Shown here: positions 2,433-24,000 of the stretch, piece after piece
Layout: the number at the start of each line of letters is the position of its first letter
How positions within the stretch are numbered: position 1 is the stretch's first letter
NCBI GenBank assembly: GCA_012523685.1
Contig: JAAYTR010000238.1
Coordinates: 9,567-33,566 of the forward strand
Source: Clostridiaceae bacterium
GTDB taxonomy: Bacteria > Bacillota > Clostridia > DSM-8532
Direction of reading: 5' to 3'
DNA: 24,000 nucleotides
The notes under the pieces: generated by a model
The model's database searches: none
The model's input: only the letters and a program-made list of their open reading frames with translations
Told to the model about the DNA's origin: nothing
Position numbers and translations under genes: made by a program

Positions 2433-3191
2433 ATGGAGCCTGCCCTTGTAAATCCGTATCTACCGTCAGGAAGGGTTACAAAAGCTATTGCATCCGGGGA
2501 CATATCAGAAGAAATCCTAAATTCATTAAAAGAGTCCGGGACAGATATTATTTTCACTGAGCCACATCCGTCGTTACCGTCACCATTATCTTACCATGCA
2601 GATATGCAGATGGTAAATGTTAGTGAGGGTGTATTTGTTTATGCTCCCGGGGTGTCAGAAAAGATGCTGGAAAAGCTTAAGAAACTGGGGTTTGAATTGA
2701 TAAGGGGTTCAGTAACGCTTAAGAATTATTACCCTTTTGATGTTGCTTATAATTGCGCAGTAGTCGGGGAAAATGCCTTTTTAAATCCAAGATATACCGA
2801 TCCGATAGTTCTGGAATTATTGGTTAAGAATAATATCAGGTTGAATCCGGTCAAGCAGGGATATGCAAAGTGTTCCACCGCTGTTGTTTCGGAGGAGGCA
2901 ATCATAACCGCAGATTTACAGATCTATAGAAAAGCGGTTGATGCCGGACTTGATGCTTTGCTGATTCAACCTCAGAAAAACATAATCCTGAAGGGCTATG
3001 ACTATGGTTTCATTGGTGGCTGTTCGGGATTAATTTCAGATAAAGAGATTGCCTTTTTCGGAGACATTAGTACTTTAGAGAATGGAGATGCCATCAGCAA
3101 ATTTTGCACTAAGCACGGTAAAGAAGCAATTTCTCTTGCAAAAGGTTATCTTGTCGATCTTGGCGGTCTATTTCCATTAACTTCTGTATAA
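2433..3191 (+). CDS. Conserved hypothetical protein (252 aa) of unknown function
   Basis: Long ORF with normal composition. An in-frame stop at 2412-2414 fixes the start at 2433, and AAGGGA lies 9 nt upstream. Motifs YHADM and GFIGGCSG are noted, but no family is assigned with confidence. Confidence 0.7.
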   Translation: MEPALVNPYLPSGRVTKAIASGDISEEILNSLKESGTDIIFTEPHPSLPSPLSYHADMQMVNVSEGVFVYAPGVSEKMLEKLKKLGFELIRGSVTLKNYYPFDVAYNCAVVGENAFLNPRYTDPIVLELLVKNNIRLNPVKQGYAKCSTAVVSEEAIITADLQIYRKAVDAGLDALLIQPQKNIILKGYDYGFIGGCSGLISDKEIAFFGDISTLENGDAISKFCTKHGKEAISLAKGYLVDLGGLFPLTSV

Positions 3192-3237: not shown

Positions 3238-4077
3238 ATGCCATCCTTAAGGGTAGACAGCATGAAAGACATAAAAGGATTGGCCTGTTATCTTAAGAAA
3301 AGATTTGGGATGAATGCACGAAGTCCGTTCAGAGTGGTAGAACGCGAAGAAGAAAATTATCTGACAATCCTTATTGATGGTTGCATAAGAAAAAATGGCA
3401 GAAAATATCTGGTTGTGCTGAACCACTTATCTGATATATTGGCTGAATATATTCTTAAATCTCATGAAACCAATATTTTAGAAAAGATAATAGCCCGTAC
3501 ATGTGAAGGGCTGACAAAAAGTGACAGGGATGAAATTTATCGTATTGCTTGTATGAGATTATATACGCATTATGAAGCGAATATCGGCAGCCTCATAGAA
3601 TCAAGACGTAAGTTGATTTCAGCTAAAATTGCTGAATACTTAAGAAGTGCTGATACGATTACTCTGGAGGGCTTTGTAACTTTCAGACTCGGTGACTATG
3701 TCAAAAATCTTGAGATTGAGGTAGAAAGGTCTATCAGGCAATTTTTCATAGAGAGACAATATGAGGAGTATATTAATCTTCTGACAACCTTCGTTAAAAT
3801 GCAGGTGCCGAAAGTACCGGAACTGCATGTTTTTGTCCAGAATAATGGCTCCTATAAAGTAGAAGGTGCAAAACCATTCGAAATTCCCGAAGACGTTATA
3901 AATGGTTTTGGGATTCAATCAAGCAATCCTGTTATTGAAGATGACGATTTTATGATAGGCTTTCTTCTGACCTGTGCACCTGTCAGAATCTTTATCCATA
4001 ATTCAGTATTATTCAGGAATAAGGAACTATTAAATACAATACGCATTGTCTTTTCAGAATGTATACTGTTAAACTGA
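3238..4077 (+). CDS. ytxC: Putative sporulation protein YtxC
   Basis: 279 aa. The central LEGFVTFRLGDY...IERQYEEYINLL region matches my recollection of the YtxC family. The start is uncertain (alternative Met at 3262). Confidence 0.65.
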   Translation: MPSLRVDSMKDIKGLACYLKKRFGMNARSPFRVVEREEENYLTILIDGCIRKNGRKYLVVLNHLSDILAEYILKSHETNILEKIIARTCEGLTKSDRDEIYRIACMRLYTHYEANIGSLIESRRKLISAKIAEYLRSADTITLEGFVTFRLGDYVKNLEIEVERSIRQFFIERQYEEYINLLTTFVKMQVPKVPELHVFVQNNGSYKVEGAKPFEIPEDVINGFGIQSSNPVIEDDDFMIGFLLTCAPVRIFIHNSVLFRNKELLNTIRIVFSECILLN

Positions 4078-5317: not shown

Positions 5318-6004
5318 ATGATTAGGTTTGTAGACGCAACGAAGGTGTATTCCAACGGAGTAATCGGGCTAAGAAACCTTACTGTCAGGATAGAAAAAGG
5401 TGAATTTGTTTTTATTATAGGAGCCAGTGGCTCAGGAAAGTCAACATTTTTAAAGCTCATAATGCATGAAGAGGTTCCAACAGAAGGCGAGGTCTATGTC
5501 AATGGATATAGTGTACATGACATGGTCCAATCAGAGGTGCCTTATCTCAGGCGTAGTTTAGGCGTCGTATTTCAGGATTTCAGATTGTTACCAAACAGAA
5601 CAGCATACGATAATGTTGCTTTTGCCATGCAAATTGTTGAGGCTACCGCAAGAGAGATTAGAAGACAGGTTCCACTGGCATTGGGACTGGTAGGCTTAAG
5701 TAAAAAGGCAAGAGCATATCCGGATCAACTCTCGGGCGGGGAGCAGCAGAGAATTGTGCTTGCCCGTGCTTTGGTCAATAACCCTGCTGTTCTGATTGCA
5801 GACGAACCCACAGGAAATTTGGATCCCAAAACCTCAATTGAGATAATGAATCTCCTTGAGGAGATAAATCAGCGCGGTACGACCGTTGTAGTGGCAACCC
5901 ACGAGAAAAGCATAGTGGATACCATGAAAAAACGGGTTATTACTCTTGAACGTGGAGAACTTAAGAGCGACGTGCAGAAAGGATCTTATTTCGATGAAAA
6001 TTAG
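5318..6004 (+). CDS. ftsE: Cell-division ABC transporter ATP-binding protein FtsE
   Basis: Walker A GASGSGKST, signature LSGGEQQR, Walker B LIADEPTGNLD. 228 aa. ftsX follows immediately. Confidence 0.95.
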   Translation: MIRFVDATKVYSNGVIGLRNLTVRIEKGEFVFIIGASGSGKSTFLKLIMHEEVPTEGEVYVNGYSVHDMVQSEVPYLRRSLGVVFQDFRLLPNRTAYDNVAFAMQIVEATAREIRRQVPLALGLVGLSKKARAYPDQLSGGEQQRIVLARALVNNPAVLIADEPTGNLDPKTSIEIMNLLEEINQRGTTVVVATHEKSIVDTMKKRVITLERGELKSDVQKGSYFDEN

Positions 6005-6908
6005 AACAATGAAGCTTCTTATTAAAGAAGGCACAAATAATGTTATAAAAAACAAGTTAATGTCATTCGCATCAATTATGACGGTTGTGGCAACATTGTT
6101 TTTCCTGGGGATAATTCTCCTTATTGCAATTAATATTACATCGAATATTGAAGCTATGAAGCGGGATTTAGAAATCACCGTTTTTCTGAATGTAAATGCC
6201 ACAAATTATCAGCGCGAAGAAGTAGTAAGTTTTATCGAAGCGAAAAAGGAAGCCGGCGTTATAACAGAATACCGAAATGAAACCAAAGAACAAATGTATC
6301 AAAATATTAAAGAAAGCCTCAATGATGATTCCCTGTTAGAGGGTTTCAGCGTTGATAATGCTGCGGAGTCGTTCTACATAAAGCTTGCTGATCCAAATAA
6401 CAGTGATGAGATAATCACAGAAATATCGCGTTTTGAGGGAGTCAACAATAATAACGGAATAGGGTACGGCAAAGAGGAGCTTGATAAGCTTGAAGGAATA
6501 CTGAAGGTTTTTAATTACATAGTTATGGCAGTACTGGTTGTCCTCATGATTGTCTCAATATTCCTCATATCAAATACTATTCGTCTTACAGTATTTGCCC
6601 GAAGACACCAGATAGAAATAATGAAATACGTAGGTGCGCTGGACAGCTTTATAAGGTGGCCATTTATCGTTGAGGGTCTGTTGATAGGGTTTATAGGTGC
6701 TGCTTTATCATTTTTTATTACCTCCCAGGCATATCAGTGGCTTCAGGGTGTTATAAATGCAATACTGGCAAATTTAAAGCTGTCTACACTTAGAATTATG
6801 GAATTTGGTCCGGTGGCTTTCAGGATATTTATTATATATTCTATATTCGGAATTGTAATCGGTGGTATAGGAAGTTTGCTATCTGTCAGAAAACACTTGA
6901 ACGTATAG
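5994..6908 (+). CDS. ftsX: Cell-division permease-like protein FtsX
   Basis: Four-TM FtsX topology with a large extracytoplasmic loop and a C-terminal TM bundle. I moved the start from the track's 5946 to ATG 5994 (MKIRTMKLL...), which overlaps the ftsE stop by 11 nt, with AAAGGA upstream. Confidence 0.9.
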   Translation: MKIRTMKLLIKEGTNNVIKNKLMSFASIMTVVATLFFLGIILLIAINITSNIEAMKRDLEITVFLNVNATNYQREEVVSFIEAKKEAGVITEYRNETKEQMYQNIKESLNDDSLLEGFSVDNAAESFYIKLADPNNSDEIITEISRFEGVNNNNGIGYGKEELDKLEGILKVFNYIVMAVLVVLMIVSIFLISNTIRLTVFARRHQIEIMKYVGALDSFIRWPFIVEGLLIGFIGAALSFFITSQAYQWLQGVINAILANLKLSTLRIMEFGPVAFRIFIIYSIFGIVIGGIGSLLSVRKHLNV

Positions 6909-6925
6909 CGTTTTGACGTTATAAT
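6897..6925 (+). promoter_or_regulatory. Sigma-A-type promoter candidate upstream of the M23 peptidase gene
   Basis: TTGAAC (6897-6902), 17-nt spacer, TATAAT (6920-6925). It overlaps the end of ftsX. Confidence 0.4.
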
Positions 6926-7025
6926 AAAATGAGCAATTGTAATAAAAATGTAAGTTTATTTATGCATATTTATTGGTAGTTGTTCATATACAGCCAACTA
7001 ACTTGAAAGGATGGGGCAGTTACAT

Positions 7026-8171
7026 ATGATAAAGCGGGCGTCGGCTTTGTTAATCTGTTTTGTGATGATTTTGACAATGGCGTTAACATCATCTGCTAAT
7101 TCTATAGATGATGCAAGGAAAGAATTGCAAAAGACACAACAGGAAATTAACGCAATAAAAAATCGACAAAAGAAAGAGAAGCAAAATCTTTTAAACAATA
7201 AACAATACAGAGAAAAAATTATAGCCGATCTAGAGAAAAAAGGCCATGAACGAAGTCAAATTGAAGAAAGAATAAGAGAGATTGAATCTGCTATTGCATC
7301 TCTTGATGAAGCAATCAGATTAACAGAAGAAGAATATGCAGCTGAACTGAAGCTTTTTCAGGAAAGACTGGTCACTATATACATAAATTCCAGGACTAAT
7401 GCAGAAACAAATTTACTTCTCCAATGTGAAAACTTTGAGGAGATGTTCAAAAAAAGCCACATGTTAAAGATGATCTCTCAGTTTGATCAGGATTTGCTGA
7501 AAAGCCTGGAAGACAAACGAAATGAAATATCTGATTTAAAGGCTCTTAAACAACAAGAAGAAGATAATGCACAGGAACAATTGGAAGCAATGCTTGTGGC
7601 TATAGCTGATCTTGAGGTGTCCCGTTCCGCAGCAGAGAAAGAAGTTCAAAAAACTCAGCAGGCGCTTAAAGAGCTTGAAAAAGCAGAAGATGCACTGGAA
7701 GCTGATTCAAAAGAATTAGAAAAACTGATAAGGAAGCTTTCATCCTCGGGGGCATATACCGGTGGAGTTATGCAATGGCCCTTGCCCGGGTATTACAAGA
7801 TTTCTTCTTATTTCGGTATGAGAATGCATCCTATTTTGAAATATAATAAAATGCATGGGGGCATTGATATAGGTGCGCCTAAGGGAACACCTATTCATGC
7901 TGCGGCCAGCGGTAAAGTAATCTGTGCTGCATGGAGAAGCGGAGGATCAGGAAATACTGTTATTATTGACCATGGCGGCGGAATCACTACGTTATATTTC
8001 CACATAATGAACGGCGGAATACTGGTTAAAGAAGGACAAACGGTTGTTGCCGGGGATGTTATTGCAAAAGTAGGAAGCACAGGACTATCAACCGGTCCGC
8101 ACCTGCACTTTGAGGTAAGAAAGAATGGTGTGCGGCAGGATCCTTTAAACTATGTTAAAGGTAAAAAGTAA
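7026..8171 (+). CDS. Secreted coiled-coil M23-family peptidoglycan DD-metalloendopeptidase (EnvC/PcsB-like architecture)
   Basis: Signal peptide (MIKRASALLICFVMILTMALTSSA), a ~220-aa heptad-rich E/K/Q/L region, then an M23 domain with HGGIDI (HxxxD) and GPHLHFEV (HxH). Start set at ATG 7026 behind AAAGGATGGGG. Confidence 0.85.
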   Translation: MIKRASALLICFVMILTMALTSSANSIDDARKELQKTQQEINAIKNRQKKEKQNLLNNKQYREKIIADLEKKGHERSQIEERIREIESAIASLDEAIRLTEEEYAAELKLFQERLVTIYINSRTNAETNLLLQCENFEEMFKKSHMLKMISQFDQDLLKSLEDKRNEISDLKALKQQEEDNAQEQLEAMLVAIADLEVSRSAAEKEVQKTQQALKELEKAEDALEADSKELEKLIRKLSSSGAYTGGVMQWPLPGYYKISSYFGMRMHPILKYNKMHGGIDIGAPKGTPIHAAASGKVICAAWRSGGSGNTVIIDHGGGITTLYFHIMNGGILVKEGQTVVAGDVIAKVGSTGLSTGPHLHFEVRKNGVRQDPLNYVKGKK

Positions 8172-8191
8172 GAGAAATAAAAATAATATCT

Positions 8192-8226
8192 AAGAGCTTT
8201 TGCAATAACAAAAGCTCTTTTGTTTT
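8192..8226 (+). terminator. Rho-independent terminator after the M23 peptidase gene
   Basis: AAGAGCTTTTG (8192-8202) / CAAAAGCTCTT (8209-8219), 6-nt loop, followed by TTGTTTT. Confidence 0.8.
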
Positions 8227-8291
8227 CAAGGTAGTTATAAATTAAAATTATTTTCTTACTTTATGGATATCATTCATGTGACTAACATGGT

Positions 8292-8320
8292 TTGAAAAAT
8301 GACAGCATAGGATGTAGAAT
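8292..8320 (+). promoter_or_regulatory. Sigma-A-type promoter candidate for the S41 protease gene
   Basis: TTGAAA (8292-8297), 17-nt spacer, TAGAAT (8315-8320). Confidence 0.4.
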
Positions 8321-8352
8321 AGATTTAATTAAGCTTAAGAAGGGTTGTTTTA

Positions 8353-9618
8353 ATGAGAAGAAAACAAAAAATATTACTTTCTGTTATTCTGCCAGCTTGC
8401 CTGGTTGCAGTGTTTTTTTTAGGCTACTTTTTCTCGGTAATTCAATTGATGTCATGGGATGTTTTTATATCAAAGCCTATAAATGAATGGTTTAAGCAGC
8501 AAAATGCAATATACTTTGATGCCGATCAAGTCGATGAATTGAATATTGAGGCATTTAATAAGGTAAAGAATGTACTGGAAAATAAATATTATAAAGAGGT
8601 TGATTTCAATGAAGCCTTCAGTCATGCGATTAAAGGCCTTTCGGCCGGTTTAGATGATCCGTATACGCTTTATTATACCCCTGAAGAAATGAAGGCTTAT
8701 CTGGAAGGGGTATCTGGGAATTATGTGGGCATTGGTGTATCGGTCCATATGGATGAAAATTATCTTCTTACCGTTGCCGATGTATTTGCCGATTCTCCGG
8801 CAAAGGAGGCAGGGATTCTTAAGAATGACAAAATTGTAAAGGTTGACAACGAAGATGTTACGACTATAAGAGATGCTGATCTGATAGTGAAAAAAATAAA
8901 AGGTGAACCGGATACCAAGGTAAGAATTACTATTTACAGACCTGATGAGAGAATATACAAGGAATTCGAGCTTATTAGAAGAGTTATTAATATTTCATGG
9001 ATTTCAAGCGAAGTATTGGATGAAGACATTGGATATATACACATTAAACAGTTTGATGATGATATTTATAGAGATTTTGAGGTGCATCTTAATAATCTGA
9101 TGGCAAAGGGAATCAGGGGTTTGGTTATAGATTTGAGAGATAACCCTGGAGGCTCGTATTATCAGGTTGCCCAAATTGCTGACCGTATTGTACCAAAGGG
9201 ATTAATTGTATATACTGAGGATCGTCATAAAAACAGAAGAGAACAGTATTCAGACGAAAGAGAATTAGAAATACCTTTAGCTGTGCTCGTCAACGGATAT
9301 AGTGCAAGTGCTTCAGAAATACTTGCAGCTTGTGTACAGGACTATGATAAGGGTATTATTGTAGGAACAAAAACATTCGGAAAGGGTCTTGTACAGGAAA
9401 TAGATATTGACTTTAAAAACGGTGGGGGCCTTAAATACACAAAAGCACGGTATTTCACTCCTTCCGGCAAAAGTATACATGGAGAAGGGGTTATACCTGA
9501 TGTAGAGATTGAATTAAGTGAAGAGTTTAACACTACATCAATTGAGGATATACCCCACGATAAGGATAACCAGCTTAAAATAGCAATTGCAGAAGTGATG
9601 GCGAAGATTAAAGAGTAG
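8353..9618 (+). CDS. S41-family C-terminal processing peptidase (Ctp) with PDZ domain
   Basis: N-terminal TM anchor, a PDZ region (GIGVSV...SPAKEAGILKNDKIVKV), the catalytic Ser context LVNGYSASASEILA, and Lys in TFGKG. Confidence 0.9.
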   Translation: MRRKQKILLSVILPACLVAVFFLGYFFSVIQLMSWDVFISKPINEWFKQQNAIYFDADQVDELNIEAFNKVKNVLENKYYKEVDFNEAFSHAIKGLSAGLDDPYTLYYTPEEMKAYLEGVSGNYVGIGVSVHMDENYLLTVADVFADSPAKEAGILKNDKIVKVDNEDVTTIRDADLIVKKIKGEPDTKVRITIYRPDERIYKEFELIRRVINISWISSEVLDEDIGYIHIKQFDDDIYRDFEVHLNNLMAKGIRGLVIDLRDNPGGSYYQVAQIADRIVPKGLIVYTEDRHKNRREQYSDERELEIPLAVLVNGYSASASEILAACVQDYDKGIIVGTKTFGKGLVQEIDIDFKNGGGLKYTKARYFTPSGKSIHGEGVIPDVEIELSEEFNTTSIEDIPHDKDNQLKIAIAEVMAKIKE

Positions 9619-10698: not shown

Positions 10699-11130
10699 TT
10701 GGGAAGAAGAGAAACACGGGAAAATGCAATGAAATTACTTTACCAGGTTCAGATACAAAAGGACGATATTGAGGAACAGATAAATCGTTTCATTGAAGAA
10801 TATGAGATTAACGATACGCAGGATAAAGAGTATTTGCTTAACGTGGTAAACGGTGTTATTAACAATGAAGAGGAACTGGATAACCTGATTTCAATTCATG
10901 CCAAGGGATGGACCATTCATAGAATGCCCAAAGTGGATCTGGCTATTATGCGGCTTTCCTGCTACGAAATAAAATACAGAAGGGATATTCCGGTTAATGT
11001 ATCTATAAATGAAGCAGTAGAAATGGCTAAAAAATATAGTGGCGAACAATCCAAGACATTTGTTAACGGTGTATTAGGTAAAATATTTGCCGAATTAGCG
11101 GAAGATACCGCTATAGATTCGGAGGAATAA
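10699..11130 (+). CDS. nusB: Transcription antitermination factor NusB
   Basis: RRETRENAMKLLYQ N-terminus and the AVEMAKKYSGEQSKTFVNGVLG C-terminal block typical of NusB. TTG start with GGAGGG 7 nt upstream. Confidence 0.9.
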   Translation: MGRRETRENAMKLLYQVQIQKDDIEEQINRFIEEYEINDTQDKEYLLNVVNGVINNEEELDNLISIHAKGWTIHRMPKVDLAIMRLSCYEIKYRRDIPVNVSINEAVEMAKKYSGEQSKTFVNGVLGKIFAELAEDTAIDSEE

Positions 11131-12329
11131 TGATGGAAAGAACATTGACCGTAACTGAATTAACCACATATATAAAGCAGCTTGTTGATAGTGACATGCT
11201 GCTTTCTAATGTCTGGGTAACCGGTGAAATTTCAAATTACAAGCACCATACCTCCGGTCATATGTATTTTTCTCTGAAGGACCAGGGAGCGGTTATTAAA
11301 TGTGTAATGTTCAGAACACAAAACAGCCGGTTGAAATTCAGACCTGAAGAAGGAATGCGTGTATTAGCCAGGGGCTATGTGTCTGTTTATCCTCAGGGGG
11401 GAGCCTACCAGCTTTATGTTGACGATATGCAGCCTGATGGCATCGGTGCTTTGTACATGGCATTTGAACAGCTAAAAAAAAAGTTGGAAGCTCAAGGCCT
11501 TTTTGATGCCGGCCGTAAAAAGAAAATACCGGAATTGCCCCGGGCGGTTGGAGTAATAACATCACCTACCGGAGCGGTTATCAGGGATATAATTCATGTT
11601 TTAAACAGACGCTACCCTAATACCAGAATATTTATATACAGTGCAGCTGTTCAAGGTCCGGAAGCAGCCGGGCAATTAATTGAAGGTATCAGGTGCTTTA
11701 ACACAAAAAAGAACGTAGATGTAATAATCCTTGCCCGTGGCGGTGGTTCTCTGGAAGATTTATGGCCTTTTAATGACGAGGATTTAGCAATTGCCATTTC
11801 AAAATCAGAGATTCCTATAATATCCGCTGTAGGACATGAAACTGATTACTCAATATCAGACTATGTTGCTGATTTGAGAGCTCCTACTCCTTCTGCTGCA
11901 GCAGAACTGGTTATGCCGGAAAAAAAGGCTCTGAAAGAAGCATTGGCTACAAATGAAAAAAGGCTGATTAACTGTTTATCATTTGGTCTCAAAAAGGAAA
12001 GAGAAAGGTTATCAAGGCTGCAAAACACGAGGGGGCTGCAAAGACCGTTAGATGCAATTAATCAAAAAAGACAGAACCTGGATGTCATTGAAAGAAGCCT
12101 GGTTTTGCATGGCAGAACCGGGTTAGACAAAACCAGAACCTCATTAAAAACAGTAGTAGCGCGGTTAAATGCTTTAAACCCTCTGACCGTATTGAGCAGG
12201 GGATATGGCGTTATTCAAAATGAAAACGGTAAGCTGATACGGTCTGTCAAAGAATTAGAACCCGGCGATAAGCTGGTTGTAACAATGTCTGACGGCAAAT
12301 TCAGTGCTGTATGTGATAAAATACTTTAA
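11130..12329 (+). CDS. xseA: Exodeoxyribonuclease VII large subunit
   Basis: OB-fold N-terminus (VWVTGEISNYKHHTSGHMYFSLKD) and catalytic core (ARGGGSLEDLWPFNDE ... VGHETDYSISDYVADLRAPTPSAAAE). The start overlaps the nusB stop (TAATG). Confidence 0.95.
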   Translation: MMERTLTVTELTTYIKQLVDSDMLLSNVWVTGEISNYKHHTSGHMYFSLKDQGAVIKCVMFRTQNSRLKFRPEEGMRVLARGYVSVYPQGGAYQLYVDDMQPDGIGALYMAFEQLKKKLEAQGLFDAGRKKKIPELPRAVGVITSPTGAVIRDIIHVLNRRYPNTRIFIYSAAVQGPEAAGQLIEGIRCFNTKKNVDVIILARGGGSLEDLWPFNDEDLAIAISKSEIPIISAVGHETDYSISDYVADLRAPTPSAAAELVMPEKKALKEALATNEKRLINCLSFGLKKERERLSRLQNTRGLQRPLDAINQKRQNLDVIERSLVLHGRTGLDKTRTSLKTVVARLNALNPLTVLSRGYGVIQNENGKLIRSVKELEPGDKLVVTMSDGKFSAVCDKIL

Positions 12330-12346
12330 AGTCTGGAGGGATTTAA

Positions 12347-12592
12347 ATGGCTAAAAAGGAAGAGAAGGCTGATATTACATATGAGCAGGCTGTTCTGGAA
12401 TTGGAAAGTGTTGTTAATATGCTCGAAAGTGGAGACTTGCCCCTGGAGGAGTCAATAAAAATATTTGAAAAGGGAATTAGCCTTGTTCGGCTATGTAATA
12501 AAAAACTGGATGATATTGAGAAACGAATTACACTCTTGATTGAGGGAAAGGAAGGAATCATCGAGAAGGACTTTAGTTCCGATGATTTATAA
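12347..12592 (+). CDS. xseB: Exodeoxyribonuclease VII small subunit
   Basis: 81 aa. YEQAVLELESVVNMLESGDLPLEESIKIFEKGISLVRLC is the XseB helical hairpin signature. SD GGAGGG upstream. Confidence 0.9.
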   Translation: MAKKEEKADITYEQAVLELESVVNMLESGDLPLEESIKIFEKGISLVRLCNKKLDDIEKRITLLIEGKEGIIEKDFSSDDL

Positions 12593-12594
12593 GA

Positions 12595-13497
12595 ATGAGT
12601 TTTATTAACGAATATAAACAATATTTAGATATCGTGGAGGAATGGCTCAGAGGTGTACTCCCGCCGGAAAGTCTTTCAAATGATGACTTCCCTGAGAAAA
12701 AAATCTATGAAGCTATGAAATACAGCCTTATGGCAGGAGGAAAAAGGATCAGGCCTGTGTTATCTCTTGCTGTTTGTAATCTGCTCAACGGCGACATAAA
12801 AGAAGTTCTTCCTTTTGCCGGGGCTATTGAATTAATTCATACCTATTCGCTTATACATGACGATATTCCATGTATGGACAATGATGATTACAGAAGAGGT
12901 AAGCCCACTAATCATAAGGTGTTTGGTGAGGCTATGGCCGTTCTTGCAGGTGATGGCCTGTTAAATCTTGCTTTTGAGATCATGCTGAGAGAAACCATTA
13001 AAGGTGACAACAAGAATTTTTCCCGTCTGAAAACTGCCTATATGATATCCACGTCCTCCGGAGTTAAAGGAATGATTGGGGGACAGGTAATTGATATGGA
13101 ATCAGAAAAGACCGCTATTTCATATGATGTATTGTGTCAAATGCACAGAAAAAAGACCGGAGCATTAATCAGAGCTTCGGTGCTGGCACCGGCTATACTA
13201 CTTGATGCAGGGAAAGATATCGTTGATAAACTGGAGAACTATGCCGAAAATATAGGTCTTGCGTTTCAAATAAAAGATGATATTCTTGATTTTGAAGGTG
13301 ACAGTAAAATTGTAGGTAAATCAACAGGAAGTGATACTGTCAATAACAAATCTACATTTGTCAGCATATTGGGAATTGAAAAAGCGAAGGAACTTTTGAG
13401 AACTTCTGTTGAAAACGCAGTTAATGCATTGAATGGTATGAATAATAACAATTTTTTAGCTCAGATTGCGGTATTTATCGCAGAAAGAGATAAATGA
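12595..13497 (+). CDS. ispA: Farnesyl/geranylgeranyl diphosphate synthase (short-chain trans-prenyltransferase)
   Basis: First Asp-rich motif HDDIPCMDNDDYRRG and second FQIKDDILD. 300 aa. Confidence 0.9.
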   Translation: MSFINEYKQYLDIVEEWLRGVLPPESLSNDDFPEKKIYEAMKYSLMAGGKRIRPVLSLAVCNLLNGDIKEVLPFAGAIELIHTYSLIHDDIPCMDNDDYRRGKPTNHKVFGEAMAVLAGDGLLNLAFEIMLRETIKGDNKNFSRLKTAYMISTSSGVKGMIGGQVIDMESEKTAISYDVLCQMHRKKTGALIRASVLAPAILLDAGKDIVDKLENYAENIGLAFQIKDDILDFEGDSKIVGKSTGSDTVNNKSTFVSILGIEKAKELLRTSVENAVNALNGMNNNNFLAQIAVFIAERDK

Positions 13498-13524
13498 TCG
13501 AGGATTTATGAGGGAGATACAAAA

Positions 13525-13962
13525 TTGACACAGGTGGGAGCATTTTTTAACAATACGGCTATAACCCTGCCGATTCTTTCATGGTTTTTAGCCCAGTTAA
13601 TAAAATTTATCAATCATTTTCTTCAACACAGGAAAATTGATTTTAGAAAGTTTGTCGCTTCCGGAGGAATGCCAAGCTCACATAGTGCTATATCGGTGTG
13701 TCTTGCGGCTGTGATGGCTATAAAAAATGGATTTGCTTCGAGTGAATTTGCCATCTCTACCATACTGTCGTTTATTGTTATGGCTGATGCAACAGGTGTC
13801 AGAAGAGCGGCGGGGAAACAAGCGGAAGTCCTGAACAAGCTTGTATACCATTCGCGGGAAATCAGAGTGGACAAAGAGTTAAAGGTACTGCTCGGGCATA
13901 CACCGATACAAGTAATTGCCGGCGCAGCTTTGGGGATACTGGTAGCAATATTATTTGCATAA
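13525..13962 (+). CDS. Divergent PAP2-family membrane protein (acid phosphatase/vanadium-haloperoxidase-related, DUF212/YuiD-like)
   Basis: SGGMPSSHSA and GHTPIQV motifs with multiple TM helices. TTG start at 13525 behind GAGGGAG. Confidence 0.8.
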   Translation: MTQVGAFFNNTAITLPILSWFLAQLIKFINHFLQHRKIDFRKFVASGGMPSSHSAISVCLAAVMAIKNGFASSEFAISTILSFIVMADATGVRRAAGKQAEVLNKLVYHSREIRVDKELKVLLGHTPIQVIAGAALGILVAILFA

Positions 13963-13983
13963 AAAGTGCTTTTAGTGTATAAT
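13955..13983 (+). promoter_or_regulatory. Sigma-A-type promoter directly upstream of the large structured RNA
   Basis: TTGCAT (13955-13960, overlapping the stop codon of the PAP2-like gene), exact 17-nt spacer, TATAAT (13978-13983). The predicted start is ~13990, about 12-14 nt before the RNA closing helix. Confidence 0.55.
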
Positions 13984-14003
13984 ATTTTCTCAACGGTAAA
14001 CAT

Positions 14004-14615
14004 CAGGATGGTGCAGTATCCTAGTCAGTACTGCCTGCTTCGAAGACGGGCCTAAAAATCCGTTAAAGGGCACATCGATGAAGTTCCTTGTGCCGGCTTG
14101 TTACGCCCAGTGATGGGTTGGTGCTGGGAGTTAAGGTTTAGGGGCAGCCTGCAATGGCATGCGGGAACTGACCCCTTTACCGCGGAGACCCTTAATTGTG
14201 GAAGACAGATTGCCCCGCGAAAGCGATAAAAATCTTGACTACGATGAGGGAGTGAACCTGCCTTGCGGTATCACTTTTTGGTGCTGTGGGCAGTGTAGCC
14301 TGCCTTGAGTGTTGTTTGGAGGATAACGGGTCACGTGTTTATGTACTGGCCGGTACATAAGCAATATTGCCGTTTGAAACCAGCAATGCAAAAGAGGCTA
14401 GAGCAGGCACAGGCTCTCGGGGAAAACCCCTAGGCTGTTTGAATAAGGCAATCCGGGGATTGCAGTGTGGACTAAGTGGTAATCAGGCTTTGAGAAGGGT
14501 AACCTTTCAACAACGGATTTAAAGGGAAACCGCCGAAACGGCGACGATTCGGTATCTATTGGGGAAAACCTGCCTGACCTAAGCCGCAAAATTTACTCGG
14601 GTTGTTACCATCCTG
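14004..14615 (+). ncRNA. ole: Large (~612 nt) structured noncoding RNA, best interpreted as OLE (ornate, large, extremophilic) RNA
   Basis: There is no plus-strand ORF in the supplied 60-aa-cutoff track across 13963-14601. G+C hand-counted at 55-58% (14101-14220) versus ~32% just downstream (14641-14700). A 9-bp closing helix CAGGATGGT (14004-14012) / ACCATCCTG (14607-14615) encloses 12 or more local hairpins, including the GNRA-type CGC-GAAA-GCG (14216-14225) and an 11-bp stem at 14336-14363. It has its own promoter. The neighbourhood (nusB-xseA-xseB-ispA upstream, 4-TM gene-dxs-tlyA downstream) and the ~610-nt size match what is published for OLE. Boundaries are good to about +/-15 nt. Confidence 0.8.
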
Positions 14616-14634
14616 TTTTATTACTGATTTTTTT

Positions 14635-15312
14635 ATGATATTGAGAAAGCAGGATTTTTGCTTGGACCAGGAAAAAGCAGAAAAGAAATATATAAAACTT
14701 TTTGATAAATACAAGGGATTATCCGGTGAAAGTATTCCTGTTAAAAAAGGCTCTGGAATTGAAAAAAAGCATATATTTTGGGGTCTTTTTATTACAGCCG
14801 TTTCTTTTACATTGTCTATACTTATATTATTTGCATCCACAAGTATATTTAAATCAATATCTCCCCCTTTGGCTTTTTTGGTTGTATTGAGTATTATTTT
14901 AATCGGTGTAATTTTTGACATCATAGGGATGGCAGTCACTGCAGCCGATGAAACTCCTTTTCATTCAATGGCATCAAAAAAGATGAAAGGAGCAAGACAA
15001 TCAATTAATCTTTTGCGTAATGCCCCCAGAGTATCCAGCTTTTGCAACGACGTTGTGGGAGATATCTGCAGTGTTGTGAGTGGAGCTGCAGGTACAGCCA
15101 TTGTATACAAGCTTTTTGCAGATAGCGCAAATATTTCTTTGTTTGAAGTGGTGTTAGGCGCTTTAATAGCTGCTCTAACCGTTGGTGGAAAAGCCTTCGC
15201 AAAAAATATTGGCATAAATAATGCCAACTATATTGTTTATAAGGTTGGTCGTATAGTCGCAGTTTTCTCCAGGAAAAGCAAGACTAACAGGAAATGTAAG
15301 AAAAACTGCTGA
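14635..15312 (+). CDS. oapA: OLE-associated membrane protein OapA-like (four-TM protein)
   Basis: Lies immediately downstream of the structured RNA. Four predicted TM helices (FWGLFITAVSFTLSILILFAS; LAFLVVLSIILIGVIFDIIGMAV; FCNDVVGDICSVVSGAAGTAIVY; LFEVVLGALIAALTVGGKAFA). The Lys-rich N-terminal segment and basic C-tail are compatible with RNA contact. Start set at the first ATG (14635), because the track's TTG 14602 lies inside the RNA closing helix. No clear SD is present. Confidence 0.7.
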   Translation: MILRKQDFCLDQEKAEKKYIKLFDKYKGLSGESIPVKKGSGIEKKHIFWGLFITAVSFTLSILILFASTSIFKSISPPLAFLVVLSIILIGVIFDIIGMAVTAADETPFHSMASKKMKGARQSINLLRNAPRVSSFCNDVVGDICSVVSGAAGTAIVYKLFADSANISLFEVVLGALIAALTVGGKAFAKNIGINNANYIVYKVGRIVAVFSRKSKTNRKCKKNC

Positions 15313-15330: not shown

Positions 15331-17223
15331 TTGATTAAGAATAGTGATAAATGTTATGGATATCTTTCAAAAATAAATACCCCGGCAGAATTAAAAAAAA
15401 TGACATATGATGAAATGGGTATGCTGGCTGAAGAAATTCGTTTGTTTCTTCTTGATTCTGTTTCAAAAACCGGCGGACACATTGCCTCTAATTTAGGTGT
15501 TGTTGAATTAACTCTGGCACTTCATAAGGTTTTAAACACACCTGTGGATAAAATCATTTGGGATGTCGGACACCAGACATATGTTCATAAAATTCTTACC
15601 GGGCGAAAGGATTCTTTTGAATCACTGCGGCAATTAGGCGGCATTGCGGGATTTCCCAAAACCCAGGAAAGTGAATATGATGTATTTAATACCGGACACA
15701 GCAGTACATCCATTTCTGCTGCATTGGGAATAGCCAGGGCACGGGACTTAAACCGGGAGAATTATACGGTTGTTGCAGTAATAGGGGATGGTGCTTTATC
15801 GGGCGGAATGGCTTTAGAAGCATTGAATGATGCCGGAATGTCCCGCACCAACCTGTTAGTAATTCTTAACGATAACGGCATGTCAATTGCTCCCAATGTA
15901 GGAGGACTTTCACGGTATTTGAGTAAAATTCGTGTTCGGCCATTTTACTATAAAACCAGAGAATCAATGCAGGCTTTTATTGACTCGTTGCCAAACTCAG
16001 GGAAACGACTCAGAAAGTTTTTGCATAAAGTAAAAGCATCGATGAAGAGCATGTTTATACCATCGATGTTTTTTGAGGACCTGGGATTCCGGTATTTCGG
16101 CCCAATTGACGGCCATAATATTAAGGAAATGGTAAGAGTATTTGAACAGGCTAAAATGATGAAAGGACCGGTTTTAGTCCATGTTACTACTATAAAAGGA
16201 AAAGGTTATAAATTTGCCGAGGAAAATCCGGGTATTTATCATGGTGTCGCACCATTCGAAATTGAGACCGGGCAGTTGGTGAATTCAGGAGGAGAGAATT
16301 ATTCAGGCATTTTCGGTAAAAAAATGTGTGAGCTGGCAGAACAGGATAATAAGGTTATTGCCATTACTGCAGCAATGACTGACGGGACGGGCCTTTCACA
16401 GTTCAGAGAACTATATCCTAAGAGGTTTTTTGATGTAGGAATAGCCGAACAGCATGCGGTAACAATGGCTGCCGGTCTGGCTATGGGAGGTGCAAAGCCC
16501 GTAGTGGCGATATATTCAACTTTCCTCCAAAGGGCCTATGATCAGATTCTTCACGATGTAGCTTTACAGAATATTAAGGTGGTATTTGCCATAGACCGTG
16601 CCGGAGTTGCAGGTGATGACGGTGAAACACACCAGGGGATCTATGATATTTCATTTCTTTATACCATACCAAATATGACTATCCTGTCTCCGGCATCGCC
16701 GAATGAGCTTAAGAATATGCTGGACTATGCTGTTTTTGAACATAAGGGACCTGTTGCTGTTCGTTATCCAAAGGGTACAGGCCATGAATTTGACGGATCC
16801 GACGCTCCCATTGAATTTGGTAAAGGTGTGGTTCTAAAAGAAGGTACTTCTGTTACTCTGATAGGAGTAGGAAAGATGTTGGAAATTACCTTTGAAGCAG
16901 GCCGGTTACTGGAGTCTGAAGGGATTTCCTGTGAGATAATAAACCCGAGATTCTTACGGCCTGCAGATGAAGAAATTATACTGGCATCAGCCAGAAAAAC
17001 GGGAAAAGTTGTTGTGATAGAGGACGTTATTCAAGAGGGCGGTTTTGGTGCTTATGTAACCGGACTTATAAATGATGCGCGCACAGGAGCTTATACAAAG
17101 GTTATCGGTCTTCCGAATAAAGGTATCGAACATGGTAAAGTAGAATTGATATACAAAAAATACGGGCTTGATGCGCAAGGGATAAAAGCTGCTATTATAA
17201 AAGAGTTTGATTTGAATAAATGA
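15331..17223 (+). CDS. dxs: 1-deoxy-D-xylulose-5-phosphate synthase
   Basis: 630 aa. GGHIASNLGVVELTLALH, the TPP-binding motif GDGALSGGMALEALN, and IAEQHAVTMAAGLA. TTG start behind GAGGTG. Confidence 0.95.
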   Translation: MIKNSDKCYGYLSKINTPAELKKMTYDEMGMLAEEIRLFLLDSVSKTGGHIASNLGVVELTLALHKVLNTPVDKIIWDVGHQTYVHKILTGRKDSFESLRQLGGIAGFPKTQESEYDVFNTGHSSTSISAALGIARARDLNRENYTVVAVIGDGALSGGMALEALNDAGMSRTNLLVILNDNGMSIAPNVGGLSRYLSKIRVRPFYYKTRESMQAFIDSLPNSGKRLRKFLHKVKASMKSMFIPSMFFEDLGFRYFGPIDGHNIKEMVRVFEQAKMMKGPVLVHVTTIKGKGYKFAEENPGIYHGVAPFEIETGQLVNSGGENYSGIFGKKMCELAEQDNKVIAITAAMTDGTGLSQFRELYPKRFFDVGIAEQHAVTMAAGLAMGGAKPVVAIYSTFLQRAYDQILHDVALQNIKVVFAIDRAGVAGDDGETHQGIYDISFLYTIPNMTILSPASPNELKNMLDYAVFEHKGPVAVRYPKGTGHEFDGSDAPIEFGKGVVLKEGTSVTLIGVGKMLEITFEAGRLLESEGISCEIINPRFLRPADEEIILASARKTGKVVVIEDVIQEGGFGAYVTGLINDARTGAYTKVIGLPNKGIEHGKVELIYKKYGLDAQGIKAAIIKEFDLNK

Positions 17224-17232
17224 CATATGGGG

Positions 17233-17300
17233 GGGCATCCTGAGCGGTGCGCAATGCCCTCACTGTCATCCTGAGCGGAGTACAGCGTAGTCGAAGGACC
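17233..17300. repeat. Short GC-rich intergenic repeat unit (two CATCCTGAGCGG copies plus a GTCGAAGGACC tail)
   Basis: CATCCTGAGCGG occurs at 17236-17247 and 17267-17278. A GGGCAT/ATGCCC hairpin (17233-17238 / 17254-17259) is present. The minus-strand translation reads ...SAQDDSEG..., which I recall as typical of a widely dispersed extragenic repeat type. Confidence 0.5.
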
Positions 17301-17358
17301 TTATATGATAACTTGGAATGACCTATACTAATATGACCTATAGAAACAGAGGTATTAA

Positions 17359-18159
17359 ATGGCCAGGGAAAGATTGGATGTAATTTTATTTAAGAAAGGG
17401 CTTTTCGAGAGCCGGGAAAAGGCTAAAACCGCCATTATGGCAGGTTTAGTATTTGTTGATGGTGAACGCGCAGATAAGCCGGGTGCGTCTTTTGGCGAAG
17501 ATTGCACTATTGAGGTTAAAGGCAAGCCAATTCCATATGTCAGCCGCGGTGGTCTCAAGCTGGAAAAGGCAATTACCGAATTCAATATAGACCTAAAAGG
17601 CATGATTTGTGTGGATGTGGGTGCATCAACTGGCGGTTTTACCGATGTTATGTTAAGAAACGGAGCAAAAAAAGTATATTCAGTAGATGTAGGCTATGGG
17701 CAATTAGCCTGGGAACTCAGAAACAATCCCAAAGTAATCTGTATGGAGCGTACTAATTTCCGGTATGTAACTAAAGAGCAGATAAGCGAACCTTTGGATT
17801 TTGGTTCTGTTGATGTTTCTTTCATATCCCTGAAACTTATACTGCCACCTTTAAAAGCTTTACTGAAGCCTTTCGGTAAAGTTGTATGCCTTGTAAAGCC
17901 TCAATTTGAAGCAGGTAGAAACAAGGTAGGGAAAAAAGGGGTTGTAAAAGACCCCGGCGTCCATGAAGAAGTAATAAATTCAGTTATATCATCATCCCGG
18001 GAATTGGGGTATTCTGTTTCAGGTCTTTCGTTTTCACCTATTACCGGACCGGAAGGTAATATTGAGTACTTGCTTTATTTAATAAACGGGGACATGGAAA
18101 AAAAGTCTGAGATCATTGTCCCGGACACAGTCAAATCAGCGCATTCTACACTAGGCTGA
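17359..18159 (+). CDS. tlyA: TlyA-family rRNA (cytidine-2'-O)-methyltransferase (hemolysin A-like)
   Basis: N-terminal S4 domain (RLDVILFKKGLFESREKAKTAIMAGLVFVDG), an FtsJ-like fold with VDVGASTGGFTD, and KPQFEAG. Confidence 0.9.
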   Translation: MARERLDVILFKKGLFESREKAKTAIMAGLVFVDGERADKPGASFGEDCTIEVKGKPIPYVSRGGLKLEKAITEFNIDLKGMICVDVGASTGGFTDVMLRNGAKKVYSVDVGYGQLAWELRNNPKVICMERTNFRYVTKEQISEPLDFGSVDVSFISLKLILPPLKALLKPFGKVVCLVKPQFEAGRNKVGKKGVVKDPGVHEEVINSVISSSRELGYSVSGLSFSPITGPEGNIEYLLYLINGDMEKKSEIIVPDTVKSAHSTLG

Positions 18160-21582: not shown

Positions 21583-21945
21583 ATGAAAAATGAAAACAGG
21601 AATTTAAGACTTATTATCGATTCGTTGGAGGATAGCAAAGCCAAGAATATTAAAGCTATTGATATCCGTAATCTGACAACTATCGCCTATTATTTTGTAA
21701 TTGCAAGCGGCACGTCTGTTACACATATTAAAGCTCTTAATGATAATTTGGTTAAAAAGCTGTCGGAGAATGGATTGGAACCTTTAAGGATAGAAGGATA
21801 TAATCATGCAAGATGGATATTGCTGGACTACGGTGATATTATTGTACACATCTTCCATGAAGAAGACAGAGAATACTATGGTCTTGAAAGACTATGGCAG
21901 GACGGGAAATCTGTTGATTTCCGGGGACTGGCAGAGACTATATAA
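21583..21945 (+). CDS. rsfS: Ribosome silencing factor RsfS (iojap family)
   Basis: 120 aa. YFVIASGTSVTHIKAL ... WILLDYGDIIVHIFHEEDREYYGLERLW is the RsfS signature. Confidence 0.9.
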   Translation: MKNENRNLRLIIDSLEDSKAKNIKAIDIRNLTTIAYYFVIASGTSVTHIKALNDNLVKKLSENGLEPLRIEGYNHARWILLDYGDIIVHIFHEEDREYYGLERLWQDGKSVDFRGLAETI

Positions 21946-21972
21946 GGGATTCAAATATCGGAGGTTATAGAT

Positions 21973-24000
21973 ATGAGTTATTCTAGAGAAGTAGATATAA
22001 AATGGCAGAAAAAATGGGAAGACACCAATCTATATAAGTTTGATAGAAATAAGCTTGATAAAAAGCTTTATTGTCTTGAAATGTTCTCTTATCCATCAGG
22101 AGCCAATCTTCATGTTGGGCACTGGTATAATTTCGGTCTCACTGATTCATGGGCAAGAATGAAGAGAATGCAGGGTTATAATGTTTTCCACCCTCAAGGA
22201 TTCGATGCTTTTGGACTTCCTGCCGAAAACTATGCTATCAAGACCGGAATACATCCTATGGACTCAACTATGAAAAATATAGATACCATGAAACGGCAGC
22301 TGAAAGAAATGGGGGCAACCTTTGACTGGGACTATGAGGTAATAACCTGTGCCCCCGAATACTATAAATGGACTCAATGGATTTTCCTTCAGTTATATAA
22401 AAAGGGTCTGGCTTACAGAAAAAATGCTCCGGTTAACTGGTGCCCAAGCTGTAAGACTGTTCTGGCCAATGAACAGGTTGTAGATGGTGCATGTGAGCGC
22501 TGTAACAGCGAGGTAACAAGAAAGAATCTAACACAATGGTTTTTCAAAATAACCGAATATGCACAAGAATTGTTAGATTGTCTGCCAGGGCTGGATTGGC
22601 CGGAAAAAACCAAGAAAATCCAGACTAACTGGATAGGCCGTTCAGAGGGTGCACAGATAGAGTTTAAGGTGGAGAATGGGGATAAGTCTTCGGAGAATCT
22701 CGCATTCAATGTATTTACAACGCGTGCTGACACGCTTTATGGTGTAACTTATGTGGTTTTGGCGCCGGAGCACGAACTTGTTGATAAAATAGCCACCCCT
22801 GAGTGTAAAAAAGCTGTAGAGGATTATCGTACAAAGGTTAGCAAGGTTTCGGAAATTGACAGGCTATCAACAGCCAGGGAAAAAACCGGTGTGTTTACTG
22901 GTGCCTATGCTATTCATCCTCTAACCGGTAAGAGAGTCCAGATATGGATTGCTGATTATGTCCTCGGAGGCTATGGAACCGGCTGCGTTATGGCTGTACC
23001 TGCCCATGATGAACGGGATTATGAGTTTGCTACTAAGTATGGACTTGATATAATTCGTGTTATCAAAGGAAATGAAGGCGTTGATGATAATCTTCCATTT
23101 GTAGAAGACGGTATTTTAACAAATAGCGAAGAATTTGACGGAATTACGTCGGAAGATGCCCGCCTGAGAATTGTTGATAAGCTTTCCCAACAAGGGAAGG
23201 GAGAGCTTAAGGTTACCTACCGCTTAAGGGACTGGCTTGTTTCAAGGCAGCGCTATTGGGGGGCTCCAATTCCAGTTGTTCATTGTGAAAAGTGTGGTAT
23301 TGTTCCGGTGCCCGAAGACCAGTTGCCGGTTGAACTTCCTTATGATGTTGTATTTACTCCTGATGGCGAGTCTCCGCTTGCCAAATGTGAGTCTTTTATA
23401 AATACCGTTTGTCCCACCTGTGGAGGTAATGCAAAAAGAGATTCGGACACATTGGATACCTTCGTCTGCTCGAGCTGGTATTTTTTAAGGTATCCGGACA
23501 ATAAGAACGATAAAGAAGCCTTTAATACTGAATGGATAAATAAAATTCTTCCTGTTGATAAATATGTTGGTGGCGCAGAGCATGCTGCCATGCATCTTCT
23601 TTATGCGCGATTTTTCACAAAGGCATTGAGAGATATGGGTTATCTTAATTTTGATGAACCATTCCTTTCATTAATACACCAGGGTACCATTTTAGGCTCA
23701 GATGGCCAAAAAATGTCTAAGTCGAGAGGCAATACCGTAACACCGGACGAATATATAAACAAATATGGTTCTGATGTTTTCAGAATGTATCTGGCCTTCG
23801 GCTTTGCATATGTTGAAGGCGGCCCCTGGAGCGATGACGGAATAAAGGCTATAGATCGTTTCATAGGACGGATCGACAGGATAATTGAAAAACATGTTGG
23901 CGAAAGAGTAAAACCGTCTTCAGACACTATGGGAGCCGATGAGAAAGAGCTTAATTATGTGCGGCACAACACTATTAAAAGTGTTACCCAGGATACTGAC
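21973..24000 (+). CDS. leuS: Leucine--tRNA ligase, 3'-truncated by the window edge
   Basis: Absent from the track because no stop occurs in the window. ATG 21973 lies behind [28 protein letters not shown]..., the HIGH-type motif ANLHVGH, zinc-knuckle Cys pairs (CPSC/CERC, CEKC/CPTC), and KMSKS at ~23710. The frame stays open to nt 24000. Confidence 0.95.

Follow-up and report, generated by a model that had tools for sequence, protein, structure and literature searches.

A full-length OLE RNA gene next to oapA in an uncultured anaerobic Bacillota bacterium

The locus and the identity of the element

The stretch of DNA considered here, referred to below as the window, is a 24,000-nt segment of contig JAAYTR010000238.1 (positions 9,567 to 33,566; assembly GCA_012523685.1) from a Clostridiaceae bacterium. 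On its plus strand lies a structured element of 612 nt (14004-14615), which is preceded by nusB, xseA, xseB, ispA (encoding farnesyl diphosphate synthase) and a DUF212 gene and followed by oapA, dxs and tlyA; the neighbours other than oapA were assigned with Pfam and NCBIfam. We identify this element, with a probability of about 95%, as the ole gene of an uncultured anaerobic Bacillota bacterium, encoding a full-length OLE RNA of ~612 nt. The OLE (ornate, large, extremophilic) family was first described in 2006, and its members are ~600-nt bacterial non-coding RNAs that act at the cell membrane with a protein encoded by a neighbouring gene. To our knowledge, OLE is among the largest and best-conserved bacterial non-coding RNAs without a known biochemical function.

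The identification comes from a scan of the whole window with Rfam release 15, in which the OLE model (RF01071, gathering score 50) was matched at 528 bits with an E-value of 1.9e-152, untruncated and over all of its positions (1-616 of 616). The original prediction, made by a model from the sequence alone, had assigned the element to the OLE class on the basis of size, architecture and synteny, and had proposed a covariance-model search as a check. The full-length match settles that assignment, which is also supported by the size, the synteny, the oapA-like gene downstream and the covarying consensus helices described below. No other Rfam match above threshold was found in the window, ROOL and GOLLD included. 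Measured from P1 to P1, the helix that closes it, the element has the ~600-nt length of an OLE RNA, and its host belongs to the group in which OLE occurs (anaerobic or extremophilic Bacillota), its lifestyle being judged from taxonomy. Proteins encoded in the window are identical to entries of an NCBI MAG (metagenome-assembled genome) labelled Clostridiaceae bacterium. No evidence contradicting the OLE identity was found. The element is a routine full-length member of a known family in its canonical setting, already known and with nothing new about it; an exact-sequence look-up gave no sign of an OLE annotation in the source metagenome-assembled genome (MAG).

The composition of the element also sets it apart, with a G+C fraction of 0.507 compared with 0.387 in the rest of the window. 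Local values quoted in the original prediction are exact (0.55 at 14101-14160, 0.583 at 14161-14220 and 0.317 at 14641-14700), the strings it cited are all in place with complementary arms in every listed pair, and the plus-strand tract it called free of open reading frames (ORFs) indeed has none of 60 aa or more (13963-14601). The minimum free energy (MFE) of the element is -236.1 kcal/mol, giving a z of -4.1 relative to dinucleotide shuffles. If the region were instead a protein-coding or decayed gene, the rise in G+C and the pairing would be incidental, and short ORFs of up to 63 aa do occur on both strands. Each of the six frames carries 6-11 stop codons within 14004-14615, however, and conservation across genomes tracks compensatory base-pairing, not codons; together with the Rfam E-value, this leaves a coding origin with a negligible probability.

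Relatives were gathered with the invariant 15-mer GGCACATCGATGAAG, which was scanned for in a set of genomes with a single representative of each species; at least 120 stretches were returned. Many of these were chance matches in non-Bacillota genomes, and true OLE loci were sorted from them by nhmmer with the window OLE: at least 53 of the stretches listed contain OLE, and all named OLE-bearing records among the matches listed are Bacillota. The nearest among the matches listed are an Acetivibrionales MAG (77% identity), a Bacillota MAG (74%) and Ruminiclostridium cellobioparum (73%). The window copy was aligned by MAFFT with 47 other complete copies, the most distant of which is 58% identical to it. 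Conservation reaches 97% or more at 164 columns across these 48 sequences, and at none of them does the window depart from the majority base. Such columns make up 27% of the length of the window element, in line with the published share of ~25% for near-invariant (>97% conserved) OLE nucleotides (PMC12265935), and the block GCACAUCGAUGAAG is invariant in 48 of 48. Metagenome contigs of the same organism are identical over the RNA, and the contig occurs in anaerobic-digester samples such as ERZ3460576. In one contig of the same species (L124:1662-2297), four bases slightly 5' of P1 (13993-13997) are changed relative to the window, while its 612-nt RNA is identical, which is consistent with a functional RNA that begins at or slightly before P1.

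Consensus structure and binding landmarks

A consensus structure was predicted by RNAalifold on the 48-sequence alignment, and its pairs were then counted per cell. It is made up of 26 helices and 154 pairs, with standard pairs in 94.4% of cells and compensatory change at 113 of the 154 pairs. The covariation score is 0.531, compared with 0.207 in shuffles and 0.131 or less when partners are slid by 1-3 columns. The ornate architecture of ~25 covariation-supported helices that is characteristic of OLE is therefore present, and the window sequence itself makes 148 of the 154 consensus pairs. Two of the six unformed pairs result from a one-column alignment shift in P3.1, where 14032-40 pairs perfectly with 14401-09. 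Nor can the MAFFT alignment be relied on in the upper portions of P7, P8 and P9, which are variable, and for these and for P3.1 the alignment to the Rfam model and constrained folding were used instead of pair counts. The parts of the element are listed in Table 1; the name P4 was assigned from the description of its loop, and P8 and P10 were named by position.

Three long-range helices that lie outside the Rfam structure line, P1, P2 and P3/P3.1, are supported. P2 is formed by pairing of 14013-16 with 14435-38 and of 14020-24 with 14430-34, and one of its column pairs (32-531) is U-A in 35 sequences and C-G in 12, the window having C-G. Compensatory change is seen in all 11 alignment pairs of P3/P3.1, which are 88-92% paired. 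With P2 enforced, the window sequence is predicted to form 3 bp in P3 and 9 bp in P3.1, a total of 12 bp. With both P1 and P2 enforced, the fold has an energy of -231.3 kcal/mol, compared with the MFE of -236.1, and P3 and P3.1 then form unforced, so that by energy calculation all four helices are thermodynamically competitive in the window sequence.

The remaining helices are mostly local. In the near-invariant block 14067-14083, which holds an AUCGAU palindrome (14074-79) and the 5' strand of the kink-turn (k-turn), GGGC at 14068-71 can pair with GCCU at 14298-301, a pairing that is 99% intact and almost invariant. P5/P5.1 has 19 pairs, 14 of them compensatory, and is 97% paired. The base of P7 (14189-94/14245-50) covaries and its upper part is suggested by single-sequence folding; the nearest relatives also carry long inserts there, unrelated in sequence. 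The basal P9 helices are 90-99.5% paired and covarying, and the middle pair of the small hairpin at 14419-14429 is A-U in 31 sequences, G-C in 13 and C-G in 3. The helices of the four-way junction, whose architecture and names are taken from the OapB-OLE crystal structure (PMC7936274), are in the Rfam structure and are 92-100% paired and covarying; within P14.1, column pair 696-703 is U-A in 22 sequences and C-G in 21. The 3' strand of P1 is followed by a U-rich tail, and the Rfam OLE consensus likewise ends in a U-rich run.

Table 1. Parts of the OLE element and its flanking features in the window. Pairing percentages and compensatory counts refer to the 48-sequence alignment.
Feature	Position	Strand	Basis
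OLE model match	13992-14627	+	Rfam RF01071
P1, 5' strand CAGGAUGGU	14004-14012, partner 14607-14615	+	9 perfect pairs; 87% paired in 48, 8/9 compensatory
P2, 5' strand GCAG-UAU-CCUAG, with CUAG palindrome	14013-14024, partner 14430-14438	+	RNAalifold, pair counts: 100% paired
P3 and P3.1, 5' strands	14027-14029 and 14032-14040, partners 14413-14415 and 14401-14409	+	Pair counts, constrained fold
P4 hairpin with conserved A-rich loop CCUAAAAAU (14051-14059)	14045-14064	+	Rfam structure; 97% paired
Near-invariant AGGGCACAUCGAUGAAG: P4a and P4a-P5 joining region	14067-14083	+	Conservation in 48-sequence alignment
P5 (14084-14088/14126-14130) and P5.1 (14090-14104/14110-14124), loop GCCCA	14084-14130	+	Rfam structure
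P6/P6.1 (14135-14137/14179-14181, 14140-14144/14172-14176, 14148-14153/14160-14165), loop AUGGCA	14135-14181	+	Rfam; 96-97% paired
P7, longer than consensus; apex CGC-GAAA-GCG (14216-14225) inside 18-nt insertion	14189-14250	+	Rfam-model alignment, with insertion and non-standard pairs
P8 hairpin	14256-14296	+	Rfam structure; 13 pairs, 8 compensatory, 91% paired
P9 arm; apex stem 14336-14347/14352-14363, self-complementary loop GGCC (14348-14351)	14303-14397	+	Rfam structure
P3.1 (14401-14409) and P3 (14413-14415), 3' strands	14401-14415	+	Pair counts, constrained fold
Small conserved hairpin GGG-GAAAA-CCC	14419-14429	+	Rfam structure; 97% paired
P2, 3' strand CUAGG-CUGU	14430-14438	+	RNAalifold, pair counts
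P10 long-range helix	14447-14457/14596-14606	+	Rfam structure; 11/11 pairs compensatory, 94% paired
Four-way junction: P12.2 (14483-14488/14572-14577), P13, P14 (14511-14518/14554-14561), P14.1, P15 (14562-14563/14569-14570)	14483-14577	+	
P13 hairpin, GNRA tetraloop GUAA (14499-14502), single bulged A14495	14490-14510	+	Rfam-model alignment, pair counts
P14.1 hairpin capped by GCGA (14541-14544)	14532-14553	+	Rfam, pair counts
P1, 3' strand ACCAUCCUG, then U-rich tail (14616-14634)	14607-14615	+	
Promoter-like site TTTGCA-18 nt-TATAAT, ending 20 nt before P1	13954-13983	+	Consensus scan, 10/12 matches
Upstream context: nusB, xseA, xseB, ispA, DUF212	10699-13962	+	Pfam, NCBIfam; order recurs in other OLE loci
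DUF212 (divergent PAP2) gene between ispA and ole	13525-13962	+	Pfam
oapA, 216 aa, TTG start at 14662	14662-15312	+	Homology to OLE-downstream ORFs
Downstream context: dxs, tlyA	15331-18159	+	Pfam, NCBIfam

The helices drawn by hand in the original prediction correspond to this architecture in part. The terminal helix is P1, the composite hairpin at 14140-76 is P6/P6.1 (92% paired as drawn) and the stem at 14336-63 is the P9 apex, paired in the Rfam model. Two further hairpins are real and were drawn in the wrong register: GGGG-AAAA-CCCC, for which the conserved pairs are G14419-21/C14427-29 around a GAAAA loop with C14430 given over to P2, and GAAGGG/CCTTTC, which is P13 with its conserved GUAA tetraloop and bulged A14495. 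CGC-GAAA-GCG is specific to the window sequence and sits in the 18-nt stretch of P7 that the Rfam model lacks. Seven of the 13 internal helices clash with conserved ones. Four of these are paired in just over half of cells or fewer: GCAGTA/TACTGC (58%), whose GCAG instead pairs with CUGU in P2; ATTGC/GCAAT (50%), both arms of which are in covarying P9 helices; AGAGC/GCTCT (50%), which overlaps the 3' strands of P3 and P3.1; and GCAATC/GATTGC (50%), whose 5' arm belongs to the 11-bp P10. GGCACA/TGTGCC (83%) and CCCAG/CTGGG (95%) join invariant strands, show no compensatory change and clash with the covarying P5/P5.1, the 3' arm of the former covarying with another partner, and CGCCG/CGGCG (81%) clashes with the covarying GCGA-capped P14.1. 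The long-range P2, P3/P3.1 and P10 were absent from the drawing altogether. As a set, its helices are paired in 71.5% of cells and score 0.270, well below the consensus values given above. These errors arose because single-sequence MFE folding makes the same local choices.

We considered whether the non-conserved hairpins, which are also preferred by MFE folding, could be conserved alternative conformers, and rejected this: the four just named pair in only 50-58% of cells, and the other three have invariant strands, 5-6-nt complements being expected by chance in a 600-nt RNA. The GAAA-capped extension of P7 was similarly rejected as a conserved extra protein site on account of the unrelated inserts that the nearest relatives carry there.

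The loops that make dimer contacts in OLE are all present in the window copy. The A-rich L4 (CCUAAAAAU) corresponds to the loop that makes an A-A bridge between the two RNAs in cryo-electron microscopy (cryo-EM) structures, and the same structures show contacts through the complementary P5.1 and P6.1 loops, here GCCCA (14105-09) and AUGGCA (14154-59), and through the symmetrical, self-complementary P9 loop, here GGCC (14348-51), which forms a kissing-loop contact (PMC12286853, PMC12265935). Sites for the partner proteins can be placed in the same manner. OapA sites have been mapped at palindromes "in or near P2" and in P4a (PMC12265935), and the window has CUAG in P2 and AUCGAU in P4a. The conserved strands that flank P5 form the k-turn bound by OapC (PMC9723947). 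P13 is the primary OapB site and needs a GNRA loop and a one-nucleotide bulge, with the GCGA-capped P14.1 as a weak second site (PMC7936274); a GUAA loop and bulged A14495 in the window make its P13 a candidate OapB site. Finally, P3/P3.1 has been proposed as a membrane-spanning stem with a typical total of 12 bp (PMC12265935), and the predicted 12 bp of the window stem would be compatible with that model.

Gene neighbourhood and transcription

The original prediction named nusB, xseA, xseB, ispA, dxs and tlyA as the expected neighbours of OLE, and all are found here in canonical order. Among the 53 OLE loci listed, the neighbours are oapA (44), ispA (36), dxs (33), tlyA (28), xseA (25), xseB (22), nusB (16) and DUF212 (8), counts to be read with the fact that many OLE loci end at locus edges.

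The oapA start at TTG 14662 is that called in public assemblies, and the closest homolog starts at the same alignment position; the open frame itself begins at 14602 and overlaps the 3' end of OLE. At 44 other listed loci, the ORF immediately 3' of OLE encodes a homolog of the window protein, with E-values from 1e-78 to 1e-24. The window protein has four hydrophobic segments (approximately residues 37-62, 68-92, 131-149 and 154-178 of the 216-aa form) and a basic C-terminus (RKSKTNRKCKKNC), so that at the sequence level the four putative transmembrane helices and basic cluster of an OapA are both present. A match to the CNNM transmembrane domain (PF01595) was found at an E-value of 1.6e-5 and 25.1 bits, under the 28.4-bit cut-off, and 16 of 23 OapA homologs match CNNM at E <=0.01. 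A profile of these 23 homologs found no sequence relative in the PDB at E <=1, and no NCBIfam model matches OapA or the DUF212 protein. OapA has been published as a distant relative of the MpfA/CNNM transporters (PMC12265935), a comparison of folds also being in the literature, and the weak similarity seen here appears consistent with that "distal" relationship. In the NCBI record the window protein is labelled "Mg2+ and Co2+ transporter CorB" (NLP00395.1), which is probably an over-annotation, as the protein consists only of a 216-aa membrane domain and scores under the Pfam cut-off for CNNM.

At two of the other loci, in an Ammoniphilus MAG (L016:4539-5176) and a Bacillota MAG (L075:1835-2473), dxs follows OLE and no oapA homolog was detected, nor is there an ORF of at least 120 aa directly 3' of OLE. 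Its absence could reflect a frameshift, an assembly error or real loss.

The DUF212 gene lies between ispA and ole here and in 8 of the 53 OLE loci listed, always at the same position and always in Clostridia-type genomes. From this adjacency it could be supposed that the product, a divergent PAP2-type membrane phosphatase, is a lineage-specific functional partner of the OLE particle. We consider this improbable, and a search of the literature library found no paper in it that mentions DUF212 along with OLE RNA. Were it true, the partnership would tie OLE to the turnover of polyprenyl-phosphate carrier lipids in the membrane.

The promoter-like site upstream of P1 has counterparts elsewhere. 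A comparable two-hexamer site is present within 70 nt 5' of P1 in 27 of 48 OLE loci compared with 2 of 43 control windows, and most loci that lack it keep a TATAAT or TGnTATAAT box; uaauau, with which the Rfam consensus opens, may correspond to the end of this -10 box. Experimental evidence for the promoter comes from B. halodurans only; there, a proximal promoter increases ole expression by a factor of more than 100, transcript 5' ends lie close to where P1 begins and the half-life of the RNA is ~3 h (PMC3413148). The site in the window matches that arrangement and would by analogy be active. The plus strand between ole and oapA yielded no terminator-like hairpin, which makes co-transcription of oapA likely.

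This last result, together with the position of the element directly 5' of oapA on the same strand and the overlap of the oapA open frame with its 3' end, could suggest a cis-acting structured leader of the riboswitch or attenuator type that controls oapA-dxs, in place of a free-standing RNA. Such a leader is very unlikely. The match is full-length to a family that has been shown to be abundant, stable, membrane-localised and bound in trans by OapA, OapB and OapC (PMC3413148, PMC12265935), 612 nt and ~25 helices far exceed any known leader, and the closing P1 helix delimits a discrete molecule.

The rest of the window was also surveyed. At 2028-2255, a 75-aa protein that matches the single-stranded DNA-binding fold of PC4 (transcriptional coactivator p15; E 2.3e-9) is encoded next to DUF6873 (2433-3191) and YtxC-like (3238-4077) genes. 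A MotA/MotB-like pair at the left edge (34-1314) and a cell-division and cell-wall cluster at 5318-9618 (an FtsE-like ABC ATPase, FtsX, an M23 peptidase with a PcsB-like coiled coil and an S41 CtpB-like protease) are ordinary context. At 21583-24000, rsfS is followed within ~30 nt by a putative leuS, judged from a look at the sequence, that runs off the window; Rfam found no T-box leader upstream of it.

Proposed mechanism and comparison with known systems

By comparison with full-length OLE RNAs (RF01071; the type described by Fernando and Breaker in 2024), the window copy has the same length, near-invariant nucleotides and consensus helices P1-P15, as well as the P13 GNRA loop and bulge, the A-rich L4 and the self-complementary P9 loop. 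It also shares the place 5' of oapA within nusB-xseAB-ispA...dxs-tlyA, with a promoter-like site close to P1 and a host among the Bacillota anaerobes. It differs in the longer P7 with its GAAA-capped insertion, in a P3 of 3 bp with a mismatch at its base and a P3.1 of 9 bp, in the shortening of the little hairpin after P2 (14439-46) and in the DUF212 gene between ispA and ole. OLE variants 1 and 2, from the TANB77 and RF39 clades, belong to the same family with the same conserved core; in these, P7, P8 and P9 are shortened or missing and the OapB site is often absent (PMC11332333). The window OLE has P7, P8, P9 and the P13 loop, which places it with the full-length type and outside variants 1 and 2. 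Three of the gathered OLE RNAs (L063:3752-4344, L070:6596-7182 and L005:2801-3392) lack the upper P9 arm with its GGCC loop (columns ~406-458) and resemble the published variant 1 forms.

A mechanism for the window OLE can be proposed by extension from H. halodurans and two Clostridium species. The ole gene would be transcribed from the adjacent promoter-like site and by read-through of the nusB-to-tlyA cluster, producing a long-lived non-coding RNA that would dimerise through the P4, P5.1/P6.1 and P9 loops. OapA dimers would bind the P2 and P4a palindromes and hold OLE at the membrane, with P13 as the docking site of OapB and the k-turn next to P5 as that of OapC. Recent work proposes that OLE spans the membrane, and in this published model it is P3/P3.1 that would cross the bilayer. 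OapA itself would be a CNNM/MpfA-like divalent-cation transporter without cytoplasmic sensor domains, and the complete particle would aid survival under alcohol, cold, excess Mg2+ and poor carbon sources. Our preferred reading, with perhaps an even chance of being right, is that OLE serves as a regulatory scaffold for this OapA, supplying the sensing and partner-binding functions.

That proposal can be set beside other transporters and other RNAs. The window OapA may resemble the MpfA/CorB/CNNM transporters, to judge from its weak, sub-threshold match to the CNNM domain; the MpfA members have been proposed as all-protein counterparts of the OLE particle (PMC12265935). Unlike these, OapA is a membrane domain only, of ~200 aa, with no CBS pair and no CorC/HlyC domain. 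ROOL and GOLLD are, like OLE, large, highly structured, self-associating non-coding RNAs whose function is not known (PMC12286853), but they form multimeric cages instead of dimers and have neither a dedicated membrane-protein partner nor such synteny.

Alternatively, the size and conservation of OLE may serve a catalytic site and not a scaffold or regulator of OapA. This ribozyme option has been raised repeatedly in the literature in view of the size, the complexity and the 25% near-invariant nucleotides of the family (PMC12265935, PMC11332333), and the same invariant blocks are found in the window copy. However, nearly 20 years of study have yielded neither a substrate nor a reaction, only one product and no self-processing are seen on a Northern blot (PMC3413148), and dimer contacts or protein sites now account for many of the invariant nucleotides (PMC12286853, PMC7936274, PMC9723947). 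A ribozyme is unlikely on this evidence.

What is directly demonstrated for the window OLE is that it belongs to the family, that it has the conserved nucleotides and the covarying architecture, and that oapA lies next to it. Several points nonetheless count against the full reading. Transcript ends, stability, membrane localisation and dimerisation are extrapolated from analogy, as an abundant, stable OLE localised to the membrane by OapA has been established only in B. halodurans (PMC3413148, PMC12265935). The mechanistic part is likewise a literature-based model. Domain searches of the 24-kb window, the rest of the genome not being searched, found no KOW or L7Ae domain (OapB/YbzG, OapC/YbxF). 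The basal P3 pair is a C-C mismatch and P7 carries its 18-nt insertion, both of which are in regions known to vary.

The comparison of drawings carries a lesson, in that hand-pairing or MFE folding of a single sequence finds local hairpins and misses P2, P3/P3.1 and P10, the helices that define the architecture. The window copy raises no new question and gives no new handle on OLE function. Its value is in the correct annotation of the gene and in adding to comparative alignments of the OLE family a further full-length sequence, taken from an uncultured anaerobe.

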